Origin: Candidatus Eiseniibacteriota bacterium
Lineage (GTDB): Bacteria; Eisenbacteria; RBG-16-71-46; JABDJR01
NCBI GenBank assembly: GCA_963783375.1
Contig: CAWANH010000018.1
Location: 1-13,990 of the forward strand
Direction of reading: 5' to 3'
DNA: 13,990 bases
In this document: one piece after another, positions 631 to 6,300 of the stretch
Position numbering within the stretch: the stretch's first letter is position 1
How the letters are laid out: the number at the start of each line of letters is the position of its first letter
Translations under genes and position numbers: made by a program
Notes under the pieces: generated by a model
Database searches by the model: none
Told to the model about the DNA's origin: nothing
Seen by the model: only the letters and a program-made list of their open reading frames with translations

Positions 631-1215
631 ATGAGAACACGAAATCCGTACCGGCGTCGGTGGATCCTCTCCGCTCTCTTCGGCCTCCTCCTGGTCTCGG
701 GGTGCGGCGAACGCACCGTCACCGGGGTTTTCCATCCCGACGCCATCCACATCGTTCGTTTGGCCGGGGACGGCATGACGCGTCTGAGGCTGGAGTTCTG
801 GCTGGACGGCGGCACGGATCCGCCGTCCCTGTGGGTGGCCGGCCAGGCCCGGAACAGCGGGGATAGACCGATCGCCTACTCGGGCCTCGTCTGCGGCTCG
901 GACGTGCCGGTGATCCGTCTGAAGGACGCCGACGGCGCCGAATACATTCTCGATGGTCCTCGTCCGCTCTGTCCCTCCGGCAAGTTGGTCATGACGCCGG
1001 GCCATGAATCCGGGTCCTACGCGTGGTACCGCGGATTCGCCTACCGGATCGGGTCCCCCAACCTGGTGGAGACCGCCCTTCCCCCGGGTCGCTATACCCT
1101 CTCGGCTCACCTGGACTACACCGTGGATCCCGGTTCGGGCCCGGTCCCGCGGTCGATCGAGGTATCGGCCGACATCATCCTGGAGGACCTCTGGCCGGCG
1201 AACCCGGCGGGGTAG
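631..1215 (+). CDS. hypothetical lipoprotein
   Basis: 194-aa ORF with a basic N-region (MRTRNPYRRR), a hydrophobic core (WILSALFGLLL) and a lipobox-like VSGC. GGAG lies upstream of the ATG. The mature part looks beta-rich and has two further Cys and an LPPGRYTL motif. Confidence 0.75.
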   Translation: MRTRNPYRRRWILSALFGLLLVSGCGERTVTGVFHPDAIHIVRLAGDGMTRLRLEFWLDGGTDPPSLWVAGQARNSGDRPIAYSGLVCGSDVPVIRLKDADGAEYILDGPRPLCPSGKLVMTPGHESGSYAWYRGFAYRIGSPNLVETALPPGRYTLSAHLDYTVDPGSGPVPRSIEVSADIILEDLWPANPAG

Positions 1216-1246
1216 ACCGGAAACCGGTCCCGGGAGACCTGCCGGC

Positions 1247-2014
1247 TCAGATCCCCCCGCCATCGATGAACTCCGGACCCTCGGCGGACCGCGCCGGACG
1301 GTGGGCCGAGAGCGCTCCGTCGGAGACCCGCGTCTCCAGTTGCTCCACCTTCTCGAACAGCACCTCCAGGGCGCGGACACCGTGGTCACCGCTGCTCTCG
1401 GCCAGGTCCATCCCCGGCCGTTCGCCGCGATCATGAACGCGGTCCAGGACGCGTCCGGCAAGCCCCACCACCGTGGCTCCCGGGGGAACGTCCTTGACCA
1501 CCACCGCGCCCGCGCCGATCCGCGCCCCGGCTCCCACCCGGAGCGAGCCCAGCACGTTGGCCCCGGCGCCCACCACCACCCCGTCTTCGAGGGTGGGGTG
1601 GCGCTTTCCCCGCTCCAGGCTCACCCCGCCCAGGGTCACCCCCTGGTACAGGGTCACGTCGTCGCCGATCTCCGCGGTCTCGCCGATCACCACCCCCATG
1701 CCGTGATCGATGAAGAACCGCCGCCCGATCGTCGCGCCGGGATGGATCTCGATGCCGGTCGCATCGCGCGCCACGTGGCTCAACCAGCGCGCGAGCAGGA
1801 ACCGGCGCCGCCCCCACAGGGCGTGGGCCATCCGGTGCATCCAGACGGCGTGAAGACCCGGGTAGCAGATGAGCACCTCGGCGGTGGTGCGGGCGGCGGG
1901 GTCGCGGGCGAAGACCGTGGCCAGGTCCTCGCGCATCCGTCTCACCCCGTGTACCGATCCGCGCGGCTCGGATGCGGGGCGATGATGGGCGAGGTTCGAC
2001 TCCGCGGTGCTCAT
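1247..2014 (-). CDS. cysE: serine O-acetyltransferase
   Basis: This is the C-terminal 255 aa of the 1247..3043 track ORF. The ATG at 2014 has GGAGG upstream and overlaps the cysK stop (ATGA). Motifs are [46 protein letters not shown] and KRHPT, with hexapeptide repeats. It ends in DGGGI (C-terminal Ile). Confidence 0.96.
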
Positions 2015-3015
2015 GATCGCCTCCCCGGGGCCCCGGTCGGCGCCGACGCGCCGGTGGCGCTCGTGTCGGCCTCGGCCACGGCGTCCTCGAACTGGAACAG
2101 GGGGGTGGAGAGGTAGCGCTCGCCGGTGTCGCAGAGGATGGTCACGATGGTCTTCCCGGCGTTTTCCGGCCGGCGGGCCACCTCCGAGGCGGCGTGGACG
2201 TTGGCCCCGGCCGAGATCCCGGCCAGGATGCCTTCGGTCCGGGCGAGCCGTCGAGTGGCCGCAAAGGCATCGTCGTTGGTCACGGTGAGAACCTCGTCCA
2301 CCACGGCGCGGTTCAGGTTTCCCGGGACGAACCCGGCCCCGATCCCCTGGATCTTGTGGGGGCCGGGCTTCCCTCCGGAGAGGATCGGCGAATCCGTCGG
2401 CTCCACGGCGATCGCGCGGAATCCGGGGCGGCGCCCCTTCAGCACCTCGGCGATGCCGGTGATGGTGCCGCCGGTCCCGACCCCCGCCACCACCAGGTCC
2501 ACCTCGCCGTCGGTGTCCGCCCAGATCTCCTCGGCGGTGGTCCGCCGGTGGACGTCGGGGTTGGCCGGGTTCTCGAACTGCTGGAGGATGATCGCGCCGG
2601 GGATCTCCGCCGCCACCTCCTCCGCCCGCGCGATCGCCCCCGGCATCCCGTTGGCGCCCGGGGTGAGGATCAGCTCCGCCCCCAGGGCGCGGAGAAGGTT
2701 CCGCCGCTCCACGGACATGGTGTCGGGCATGGTGAGGACGAGGCGATAGCCCCGGGCCGCGGCCACGAAGGCCAGGGCGATCCCGGTGTTGCCGCTGGTG
2801 GGTTCGACCAGGACGGTCGTTCCGGGTTGGATGCGGCCCTCGCGCTCGGCCGCCTCGACCATGGCCACCCCGATCCGGTCCTTCACGCTGGACAGGGGGT
2901 TCATGAACTCCGCCTTGCCCAGGATGCGCGCGCCGGCATCGGGGGCGAAACGGGAGAGCTCGATCAGGGGCGTTCGCCCCACGGCTTCGGTGATATTGCG
3001 TCGGATGTTCGCCAT
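2011..3015 (-). CDS. cysK: cysteine synthase A (O-acetylserine sulfhydrylase, PLP-dependent)
   Basis: The start [17 protein letters not shown] is at 3015, behind AAGGAG; 334 aa. It has the PLP lysine motif [52 protein letters not shown] and DTGERYLST. Confidence 0.97.
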
Positions 3016-3079
3016 GTCTGGTTCTCCTTGGGGGCTGCCGCAACGGCAGTCGGGATGGGCGAGGCCGGGGGGGGGGTAC

Positions 3080-3111
3080 GAAGAAAGCCCGCCGGCTTTC
3101 GCCGCGGGCCT
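3080..3111 (-). terminator. intrinsic terminator-like hairpin (putative attenuator) upstream of cysK
   Basis: The minus strand reads GCCCGC-GGC-GAAA-GCC-G-GCGGGC followed by TTTCTTC. This gives a 9-bp GC stem with a one-base bulge, a GNRA tetraloop and an imperfect U tract. It lies between the leader ORF stop and the cysK RBS. Confidence 0.7.
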
Positions 3112-3136
3112 GGCTTCCTCGGGAGTTTCGCTTCGT

Positions 3137-3259
3137 CTACGTCCGGGAGCGGTCTCCCGTTCGAGACGTCCGATCACTCGATCCGGCGGACGCACCGGCC
3201 CACGACCCGCAATGCGGGCAACAACAGCAGCAGTTGATGTGGTGGGTCGGACGGATCAC
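3137..3259 (-). CDS. putative poly-cysteine leader peptide, 40 aa: [40 protein letters not shown]
   Basis: GTG start at 3259 is preceded by GGGAGA with a 9-nt spacer. Codons TGC TGC TGT TGT TGC lie at 3232-3218, a sixth Cys at 3211-3209 and TAG at 3139-3137. The ORF sits directly upstream of cysK-cysE on the same strand and is not in the ORF track. Confidence 0.85.
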
Positions 3260-3294
3260 GGTTCGGATTCTCCCGTCTGGGTGCTGATGCACAA

Positions 3295-3323
3295 AGTATA
3301 ATGACCGATCCGGTCCTCTTCAA
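3295..3323 (-). promoter_or_regulatory. sigma70-type promoter for leader-cysK-cysE
   Basis: -35 TTGAAG (3323-3318), 17-nt spacer, -10 TATACT (3300-3295). It stands out in very GC-rich DNA. Predicted +1 is near 3290-3288, about 30 nt before the leader GTG. Confidence 0.8.
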
Positions 3324-3354: not shown

Positions 3355-6300
3355 TCATGCCACCTGGGACGAGTCCTCGGCGGCCTTCCTCCGCCGTCCC
3401 CGCCAACCCTCCTCGAAGAGCGAGTAGACCACCGGGATCAGCACCAGGGTGACCAGGGTGGAGGTGGTGAGGCCGCCGATCACCACCCGGGCCAGGGGGG
3501 CCTGGGCCTCGCCGCCCTCGCCGGCCCCGAAGGCCAACGGCAGGAGCCCCAGAACCGTGGTCAAGGTGGTCATGAGGATCGGGCGGAGCCGGCGGGAGCC
3601 GGCCACGGTGATGGCGTCGTGGAGGGGGAGCTTGTCGCGGCGCCGGAGCAGGTTGGTGTAGTCCACCAGGAGGATCGCGTTGTTCACGATGATTCCGCCC
3701 AGCATGATGCAGCCGATGTAGGCGTTCAGGCTGAACGGGATCCCGGTCAGGACCAGGGCCAGCGCGACCCCGATCACCGCCATCGGCACCGAAAAGAGCA
3801 CCACGAACGGGTCGCGCAGGGACTCGAACTGGCCGGCCATGACCATGTAGACCAGGACCAGGGCCAGGATCAGTCCCAGCAACAGCTCCCGGAACGCCTT
3901 CTGCTGCTCCTCGTAGTCGCCGCCGATGATCACCGAGAAGTCCTTGGGCACCGGGATCCGGCCGATCGCCTCGCGAACGTCGCCCACCACCGACCCCATG
4001 TCGCGGCCGGTGAAGTTGGCGGAGACGAACACCGTGCGCTCCTGGTCCTTCCGCTCCAGGCGCACCGGACCCGTCCGCGGCTCCGACACCAGCACGTTCC
4101 GGAGCACCACCGGACGGCCCCGGTCGTTGGTCACGGTGAGGTCGAGCAGGTTCGAGAGGTCGCGCCGGTCGTCCTCGTTCAGCCGCACCATGATCCGGTA
4201 CTCTTTTCCGGCCTCGCGGTAGTTGGAAGCGTAGGTTCCTCCCACCGCGGTGCGGAGGGCCTCGCCGATCCGCGACACGCTCAACCCCAGGTCCGCCGCC
4301 TTCTGGCGGTCGATCCGGATCACCTCCTCCGGCCGTCCCTCCTCCCGGCTGATCCGGGCGTCGCTCACCCCGGGGACCTCGGCCACCGCCGCCCGTACCT
4401 GCTGGGCCAGCTCCCGGGCGGTGTCCAGGTCGTATCCCCGGATCTCCAGGCTCAGGTTGTCGCCGTCTCCTTGCCCCATCCGGAGGATCCAGAGGCCCTG
4501 TCCCGCCCGGGTGCGGACGGTGACCCCGGGGAGCGACGAGAGCGCGGGACGGAGCGCGTTGGCGATCTCCTCGCTGCTCCGGCGCCGCTCCGATTGGGGA
4601 ACCAGGGTGGCCCGGATGTTGGCGGTGTGTCCGCCGGAGGCCCGCCATCCCCCGCCTCCCACGCTCACCAGGATGGACTGGAGTTCCGGCACCTGGGCCC
4701 GGACGATCTCCTCCACCGAGCGGGTCATGCGGTCCATCACGTCCAGGCGCGTCCCCACCGCCATCTCGAGATCCACTCGCACCTCGCCCTCGTCGGAGGC
4801 GGGCATGAAGTCCACCCCGATGGTGGGGAGCAGCAACACCGACCCCACGAAGAGCGCCAGCGCGGAGAGGATCACCATGCGGCGGTGACGAAGGGCCCGC
4901 CGCAATACCCGGCCGTAACCCTGCTCCACCGCCTTGAACGCGGCCTCGCTGGCGTCGTAGACCCGGCCCGGGCCGCGGCGGGATCCGCCCGCCACCGCTC
5001 CCCGGAACCGGAGAAACCGCGCGCTCAACATCGGCACCAGGGTCAGCGCCACCACCAGGCTGCAGAGAAGAGAGAACGCCACCACGAAGGCGAGCTGCTG
5101 GAAGTAGATCCCCGAGATCCCCCGCATGAAAACCACCGGGAGGAACACCACCACCGTGGTCAACGTGCTGGCCACGATGGCGCTTCCCACCTCCTCGGTC
5201 CCCTGGAGCGCGGCGTCCCGGGGGGAGAGCCCGGTCTCCCGCAATCGATAGATGTTCTCCAGGACCACGATGGCGCTGTCCACGAGCATGCCGATCCCCA
5301 GGGCCAGGCCCCCGAAGGTCATCAGGTTCAGGGTGAACCCGCCGAAGTAGATCAGTCCGAAGGTGGCGATGATCGAGACCGGAATGGCGGTCGCGATGAT
5401 CACCGTGCTGGAGACGTTGCGAAGGAACAGGAGGAGGATCACCACGGCCAGGATGCCGCCCACCGCGGTGGCCCGCCCCACGTTCCGGATCGAGTTCTCG
5501 ATGTAGGTGGAGGTGTCGATCAGGGGGAGGAGCTGGATCTGGGGAATGTCCCGGTTGATCCGGGCCATCTCCGCCTTCACCGCCTGGGCCACCTCCACCG
5601 TATTGGCGCCGGATTGCTTGTTGATGGAGAGCCGAAGGCTGGGCTTGCCGTTAACCCGCACCCGGCGGGTGATCTCCTCCCAGGAATCCTCGACCCGGGC
5701 GAAATCGGAGATGCGGATGGGCGAGCCTTCACGGATGGCCACCACGGTGTTCCGGATCTCATCCAGGCTCAGGTACTCGCCCTGGGTCCGGATCAGAACG
5801 TCGAGGTTCCCGGTCTGGACGGTGCCGGCGGGGATGTTCTGGTTCTCCCGGTTCAGGGCGTCCAGGACGTCCGAGGTGGAGAGCCCCAGGGACTTCACCT
5901 GGTCGGCGTCCAGGTCGACGTGGATCTCCCGGGTGAGACCACCCCAGATGTCCACCGCGGCCACCCCGGCCACCCGCTCCAGGCGGTACTTCACCTGGTC
6001 GTCCACGATCTGCCGGAGATCGAGGGGGTTCACGTCGCTCGACACCCCGAGGATCATGACCGGGAAGGCGGAGAGATCGAACTTCCGGATGGTGGGGCGG
6101 TCCATGTCCTCGGGGAGGCGGCCGGTGATCCGGTCGATGCGGTCGCGGATGTCGTTCGCGGCCACGTCCAGATCCGCTCCCCAATCGAACGAGACCCGGA
6201 CGGAGCTGTTCCCCTCGGTGGAGACCGAGTTGATCTCCTCGACCCCCTGGACCGCGGCCACCGCCTCCTCGATGGGCCGGGTGACCAGGTCCTCCATCTC

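Follow-up and report, generated by a model that had tools for sequence, protein, structure and literature searches.

A predicted cysteine-sensing transcription attenuator in the cysK–cysE leader of a Candidatus Eiseniibacteriota bacterium

Cysteine leader peptides and the cysK–cysE locus

The attenuators of the trp operon of Escherichia coli and the his operon of Salmonella are textbook systems that share a common layout: a short leader ORF, in which codons for the product amino acid stand in a run, precedes the alternative RNA pairings 1:2, 2:3 and 3:4 and an intrinsic terminator ahead of a biosynthetic operon. Classical leader-peptide attenuators are described in the legend to Figure 1A of bioRxiv 10.1101/834739. 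Cysteine is a gap in the classical set. Seliverstov et al. (2005, PMC1262725) reported Cys leader peptides before the cys operons of Mycobacterium, P. acnes and B. longum, which are without conserved terminator hairpins and for which termination by Rho was proposed. Canestrari et al. (2020, bioRxiv 10.1101/834739) stated that attenuation by Cys uORFs was previously undescribed, and characterized leaderless poly-Cys sORFs; for one of them, Ms5788A, translational attenuation by occlusion of the Shine–Dalgarno (SD) sequence was shown. PMC13236596 also cites the mycobacterial work as translational. The closest transcriptional counterpart is uORFC-8-2, a motif with 145 examples before cysS in Rhodobacterales, in which two Cys codons are followed by a predicted intrinsic terminator (Brewer et al. 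2021, PMC8632094). It is presumed, as a prediction, to act by ribosome-mediated transcription attenuation sensing tRNA-Cys, and in the accessible literature transcriptional Cys attenuation is in print solely as this cysS prediction (PMC8632094). The available parts of PMC2965389 and PMC13613805 contain nothing about Cys leaders, and no terminator/antiterminator Cys attenuator before cysK–cysE was found in a literature search outside whose range most subscription papers lay.

The locus considered here lies in a window of 13,990 nucleotides, the whole stretch of DNA analysed, with a GC content of 69%. On its reverse strand, cysK is the first gene of a pair with cysE, the ATG of cysE overlapping the stop codon of cysK (ATGA). 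The upstream neighbour is an RND efflux operon in the same direction, whose permease gene ends at 3355. Between the two lies a leader that probably is a classical ribosome-coupled transcription attenuator of the trp/his type, sensing charged tRNA-Cys. The same layout is seen in the sequences of 16 other genomes. The features are collected in Table 1.

Table 1. Features of the cysK–cysE leader and the genes it precedes; all lie on the reverse (−) strand of the window.
Feature	Position	Description or basis
Putative σ70-type promoter	3295..3323 (−)	−35 TTGAAG 3323-3318; 17-nt spacer; −10 TATACT 3300-3295
SD-like GGGAG of the leader ORF	3270..3274 (−)	10 nt ahead of GTG; from sequence
Leader ORF	3137..3259 (−)	GTG 3259 to TAG 3137, 40 codons; Cys codons 10-14 in tandem, sixth Cys at 3211
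Segment 1, putative anti-antiterminator	3242..3250 (−)	pairs with 3203-3195, 8 of 9 bp; present in the ribosome-free minimum free energy (MFE) fold
Predicted sensor, five consecutive Cys codons	3218..3232 (−)	UGC UGC UGU UGU UGC; from sequence
Small hairpin after the Cys run	3206..3218 (−)	overlaps the first base(s) of segment 2; ribosome-free MFE
Segment 2, putative antiterminator 5' strand	3195..3206 (−)	pairing with segments 1 and 3
Segment 3, putative antiterminator 3' strand and terminator 5' arm	3101..3110 (−)	pairing and folding
Segment 4 (terminator 3' arm, 3096-3087) and U-rich tail (3086-3080)	3080..3096 (−)	from sequence
cysK (cysteine synthase A, 334 aa), first gene under the predicted control	2011..3015 (−)	TIGR01139, 449 bits (cut-off 351)
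cysE, serine O-acetyltransferase	1247..2014 (−)	TIGR01172, 241.5 bits (cut-off 210.65)

Like uORFC-8-2, the leader has tandem Cys codons in a uORF, stem structures and a run of U. Unlike this leader, which precedes cysK–cysE, that motif controls cysS, carries two Cys codons that are mostly UGC, has two stems and belongs to another phylum, and an antiterminator is undescribed in the accessible text; the comparison is with its published description rather than by motif alignment. With the mycobacterial "Cys ribulon" (Ms5788A, Rv2334A) and the other actinobacterial leaders it shares a poly-Cys sORF that would sense tRNA-Cys upstream of cysteine genes. Those leaders are leaderless, have the Cys run at the end of the ORF and have no conserved terminator hairpin, whereas here the ORF is SD-led, the run is early and a terminator/antiterminator pair follows. 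From trp and his it differs in sensing Cys, in the separation of segments 2 and 3, and in the position of its stop codon (see below). No leader family of Rfam matched it, and among the 4227 families searched, which included riboswitch, T-box and leader families, none matched the window above its gathering score.

The window has a 98.4% identical copy on a contig of the same genome (C28:436757-450005), the leader included. In it a frameshift near residue 121-127 interrupts cysK, and the segment corresponding to window positions 631-1349, an orphan ORF that encodes 194 aa and lacks an NCBIfam match, is missing. This copy is likely a strain variant or an assembly duplicate.

Leader anatomy and the predicted ribosome-dependent switch

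Between 2800 and 3600 there is a single promoter-like site, ahead of the leader, where 0.0 ± 0.1 were expected from 50 shuffles, and the same scan gave no promoter consensus between the hairpin and cysK. Transcription would be expected to start near 3288. The leaders of two relatives, L003 and L004, are preceded by similar promoter hexamers, as judged by eye. A palindrome in the promoter spacer (3315-3303) was considered as an operator, a reading that was dropped since the palindrome is absent in these two relatives.

The leader ORF has the start, ribosome-binding site and run of product codons that are expected of an attenuator uORF. Its GTG lies 36 nt past the −10 box and is preceded by an SD, so it is not leaderless in the manner of Ms5788A; purine-rich SD equivalents are also present in the homologous leaders L002-L005. 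It has no NCBIfam match. Runs of at least four TGY triplets occur six times in the genome, and runs of five only here and in the C28 duplicate. Among the codons counted in the Cys runs of the leaders (see below for the homologues), UGU makes up 50 of 63, compared with 1135 of 7824 (14.5%) Cys codons in the long ORFs of the genome. Both tRNA-Cys genes of the genome have a GCA anticodon; UGU would be wobble-read by this single tRNA type and may stall ribosomes more readily. The same genome also carries a tRNA-Sec gene on one contig (217530-217627).

The pairings of the original prediction are reproduced by the sequence: the 1:2 complementarity is as proposed, segments 2 (3206-3197) and 3 (3110-3101) can form an uninterrupted helix of 10 bp, two of them G-U, and segment 3 is the 5' arm of the terminator, which has a GAAA loop and is followed by UUUCUUC (3086-3080). 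The location of segment 2 just past the Cys run, from which 11 nt separate it, is likewise as described. The leader has a predicted intrinsic terminator between its ORF and the first gene, with an imperfect tail: the hairpin (3112-3078, −20.6 kcal/mol) contains one bulged G, and a strict terminator scanner gave no call because of this bulge and the interrupted U run. The five type I homologues (see below) have runs of five U. Segments 2 and 3 lie 86 nt apart, and the intervening RNA had been proposed to fold locally and bring them close together. Such folding is indeed predicted (3159-3154:3149-3144, 3168-3164:3138-3134 and several short stacked helices), but the particular helices named in the proposal are possible pairings that lie outside the MFE structure. 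In untranslated RNA the predicted 1:2 helix excludes the antiterminator, as in a classical attenuator. The ribosome-free folds also pair the leader SD (3275-3270) with 3125-3120 and the start-codon region with 3185-3179, which in these models could block re-initiation on terminated leader RNA.

The effect of ribosome position was modelled by folding only the RNA 3' of the ribosome, the leading edge being placed 13 nt beyond the first nucleotide of the A-site codon. This masked folding describes equilibrium and does not treat kinetics. Under this scheme 2:3 has a probability of 0.98-1.00 for a ribosome on any one of the five Cys codons with segment 4 included, and 3:4 has one of 0.99 with the ribosome at the stop codon. 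Footprints of 10 and 16 nt gave the same outcome, the lowest value being a 2:3 probability of 0.77 at the fifth Cys codon with 16 nt. When the ribosome is walked codon by codon, 3:4 does not exceed 0.03 up to and including the Pro codon at 3217, rises to 0.96 at the His codon at 3214 and remains at 0.96-0.99 onward. In the stalled state 2:3 is favoured over a forced terminator by 3.3 kcal/mol, and in ribosome-free RNA the combination 1:2 plus 3:4 is favoured over a forced 2:3 by 5.6 kcal/mol. Helix 1:2 enters the MFE from a transcript length of about 90 nt on, and there is a short window of transcript lengths in which ribosome-free RNA has 2:3 as its equilibrium fold (P 0.84). The antiterminator is thus free, in silico, only with the ribosome on the sensor codons, provided that no pairing occurs across the ribosome. 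The switch depends on this assumption, because allowing such pairing abolishes it at equilibrium, the terminator of this sequence then winning in every state. Attenuators are usually taken to have no pairing between the RNA behind and the RNA ahead of the ribosome.

These calculations bear out the proposal that 2:3 is competitive under a stalled ribosome (P at least 0.98) and gives way to the terminator past the run (P at least 0.96), and they qualify one step of its geometry and correct another. A ribosome on the first Cys codons had been taken to cover segment 1 and leave segment 2 free; on the later Cys codons segment 2 is still free, the ribosome sits between segments 1 and 2, and segment 1 is uncovered. 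Disruption of 2:3 had been assigned to a ribosome that reaches the TAG (3139-3137), a placement that does not hold, as a ribosome there covers neither strand: segment 2 ends 57 nt upstream and segment 3 begins 26 nt downstream. In the folding model the decision falls two codons beyond the Cys run, when the leading edge of the ribosome moves into segment 2; past this flip point segment 2 is predicted to be under or behind the ribosome, or to be re-paired with segment 1. The design thus differs from trp and his in that, with the stop codon 57 nt beyond segment 2, the ribosome would run through this segment instead of halting and parking on it.

The caveat that such pairings can arise by chance in GC-rich sequence had been raised beforehand, and the shuffle controls rarely reach the observed values. 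Within the upstream leader, segment 2 is the strongest partner of segment 3 (−21.2 kcal/mol, against −10.6 for the runner-up), and when the mononucleotides of that leader were shuffled, 3 of 200 shuffles gave an equally strong duplex. For the switch itself the terminator was kept and the region between ribosome and terminator was shuffled 300 times with dinucleotides preserved. A ribosome on the second Cys codon leaves the terminator a probability of 0.005, a value matched by one of the 300 shuffles, with five under 0.1 and a mean of 0.93; the same control on homologous leaders gave 1/300 (L002), 0/300 (L003), 3/300 (L004) and 6/300 (L005) shuffles as low. The fold of the whole leader has a z-score of −2.64, one of 200 shuffles being as good. 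A rough genome scan for other leader-peptide attenuators returned 12 candidates, the only convincing ones being the two copies of the Cys leader. On C28, at 1070216 (+), a 45-codon ORF rich in Phe, Asn and Tyr and ending in YYLKKK enters a hairpin (−29 kcal/mol) with a U5 tail, which is possibly another leader and possibly chance.

The resulting model keeps the classical transcription attenuation of the original prediction, with which the anatomy, the folding under constraint and the homologues all agree, and corrects the step at the TAG. Under Cys shortage a ribosome held on any of the Cys codons would leave segment 2 free, 2:3 would form, and the polymerase would read into cysK–cysE. A ribosome that moves past the run would cover and then pass segment 2, so that 3:4 alone could form and the transcript would end near 3080-3084. 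On a leader free of ribosomes, 1:2 plus 3:4 is predicted to win, which would make the default state off. In this scheme we infer that the leader is translated, that ribosomes stall when Cys is limiting, that they are coupled to the polymerase and that transcripts end at the U tail. In a sediment metatranscriptome (one sample, assembled contigs) 4% of the words of the sequence are present, and a contig of a relative (244 nt, depth 2.1, 15 differences, 2 gaps) lies on 3021-3266, extending past the terminator; it shows neither strand, transcript end nor level, may be DNA and counts neither way.

Homologous leaders in the phylum

The phylum is represented by 206 genomes of one class, of which 64 have a cysK match at E ≤ 1e-100, and the upstream DNA of 54 cysK loci was examined to 1.5 kb. 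A poly-Cys short ORF was found at 17 of the 54, ending 104-221 nt ahead of cysK, and in all 17 a GC-rich hairpin with a U-rich tail comes next, the tail being weak in L282, where the automatic hairpin call was wrong. The homologous ORFs have 27-41 codons with 2-6 Cys codons; the Cys run is kept and little else, apart from an Arg codon directly after the run in most leaders. They fall into two sequence types and, ten being from one genus, are kin rather than independent events. Type I (n = 6) comprises the window, L002 and L003 from the same genus, and L004, L005 and L111 from three other families, the leader–cysK unit being patchy over these four families. Type II (n = 11; L007, L113, L114, L118-L120, L122, L127, L282, L284 and L285) comes from one other family, ten members being of one genus. 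Its terminator is different and unrelated in sequence to that of type I, its ORFs are near-leaderless, 8-12 nt past a −10-like box, with 2-5 Cys codons, and its segment 2 is sequestered by a covarying hairpin, the 3' strand of which is a repeat of the terminator 5' arm.

The pairings are conserved across these leaders, the reverse of which had been named as grounds for rejecting them: 2:3 is paired in 88% (type I) and 93% (type II) of cells, well above slid registers. The CCCGCGG core of segment 3 is invariant in all six type I leaders, 2:3 keeps 7-10 pairs when these are anchored by hand, and all six have an equivalent of segment 1 upstream of the Cys run (−15 to −23 kcal/mol) and a hairpin directly after it, which differs in sequence between families. 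Covariation, proposed as a check, gave a divided answer. The 2:3 helix is conserved and the type II hairpins that hide segment 2 show compensatory changes, with 10 cells changed on both sides, a value found in none of 500 shuffles and inflated by kinship; in type I, a U-to-C change in segment 2 of L005 is matched by a G in segment 1. The covariation of 2:3 itself, however, is not above shuffles (28 of 500 for type I, 279 of 500 for type II), mainly because segment 3 hardly varies. The MAFFT alignment of type I places L005 in the wrong register, and RNAalifold on five leaders recovered the terminator with an otherwise poor consensus as a result of the misalignment.

The best upstream complement of the terminator 5' arm begins 7-14 nt after the run in 15 of the 17 leaders, and in L004 and L119 the complement at that site ranks second; in L004 a stronger complement lies about 75 nt upstream of the Cys run, 5' of the SD. 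Judged by duplex energy alone, 2:3 is matched by more than a quarter of shuffles in 7 of the 17, and there it is the position alone that stands out. When only segment 3 has been made and the ribosome is on the first or second Cys codon (13-nt footprint), the probability of 2:3 is at least 0.66 in 16 of the 17, L111 being the exception at 0.20. At full length and equilibrium 2:3 loses to the terminator in L111 and in every one of the 11 type II leaders; L002, L004 and L005 show the same with the ribosome on the later Cys codons. In these cases the switch would have to be kinetic.

Among the 37 loci with no leader within 1.5 kb, 11 have cysE upstream and five have an adjacent Rrf2-like ORF (L009, L011, L013, L014 and L019, on the same strand as cysK or divergent, recognized by a crude motif and not an HMM), which in these five may provide an alternative, protein-based control of cysK. 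In five genomes of the same genus or family (G003, 98% complete, and G004-G007) no close cysK orthologue was found with the query used, the best matches having 44-58% identity.

Wider scans extended the comparison. A GTDB-wide cysK scan, covering 80 of about 600 candidate loci, found a Cys-rich short ORF at six, credible at two (L079 and L095), which are mycobacterial leaders before cysK with no terminator seen; none of the 80 was of the present type. A phylum-wide pattern scan recovered the six type I leaders among matches that were mostly chance, being about as numerous as in a reversed control, and none of four further candidates combined leader, terminator and Cys gene. A metagenome pattern scan yielded at least 120 stretches, three of which passed a crude filter; none had a Cys gene downstream, and they were treated as chance.

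Alternative readings and significance

The best-surviving alternative, itself improbable, accepts that Cys is sensed by stalling and holds that the output is mainly Rho-dependent termination on a C-rich stretch, the hairpin serving as a pause or gate. Rho is encoded in the genome (718 bits, over the cut-off), of the 51 nt from the hairpin to the cysK SD, 30 are C and 11 are G, and C is the more frequent of the two in this stretch in all 17 leaders; the U tail in the window is broken, and Seliverstov et al. invoked Rho for cys leaders in a prediction termed weak (PMC1262725). On the other hand, a GC-rich hairpin stands directly before a U-rich tail in nearly all 17, with the five U of the type I homologues, and in 9 of the 17 the spacer after the hairpin is just 15-27 nt. 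Such a spacer is short for Rho loading. The layout of hairpin plus U run points to intrinsic termination, to which Rho may be a back-up.

Two further readings are both very unlikely. The first is translational attenuation in the style of the mycobacterial Ms5788A, in which the structures would hide or free the cysK ribosome-binding site; it draws on the fact that the sole experimentally shown mechanism of a polycysteine sORF is, in the accessible literature, a translational one (bioRxiv 10.1101/834739). In the Ms5788A system the sORF RNA hides the SD of the next gene, whereas here the cysK SD (3030-3024) has a predicted accessibility of 0.59-0.66 whichever of the five ribosome states is modelled, it is not paired with either segment, and the competing helices end 55 nt upstream. 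The second, which deserves as little weight, places the trigger in the nascent peptide, as a thiol-, metal- or redox-sensitive arrest peptide read by the RNA switch, or gives the peptide a function of its own. Its five or six Cys plus a His could bind metal, and the run is followed by an Arg codon in most leaders. That codon, however, is part of a conserved RNA stem, the length, Cys number and flanking residues of the peptide vary among homologues, the flip point comes directly after the run, and the regulated genes make Cys. Least probable of all is that the hairpin simply terminates the RND efflux operon upstream, with pairings and Cys run arising by chance at this GC content: the upstream genes do run in the same direction, GC-rich RNA pairs readily and pattern scans return mostly chance matches, but the shuffle controls, the recurrence of the Cys run in 17 leaders, the persistence of the leader where the upstream DNA changes (L002, L004, L005, L111) and the location of the sole promoter consensus ahead of the leader all speak against it.

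Ribosome-coupled transcription attenuation, as a mechanism, is itself textbook, so that its predicted use for cysteine would be a welcome extension for the specialist and no surprise. It is somewhat more probable than its opposite that intrinsic-terminator Cys attenuators of the four-segment kind form a common and undescribed group in uncultured bacteria, with two unrelated cysK designs in this phylum, where they would replace the Rrf2-type regulator that other members have beside cysK. The leader is directly testable in an E. coli reporter, because it is compact, has a σ70-like promoter and a sharp predicted flip. If the reading is true, it would be the cleanest model for a first experimental proof of transcriptional Cys attenuation.
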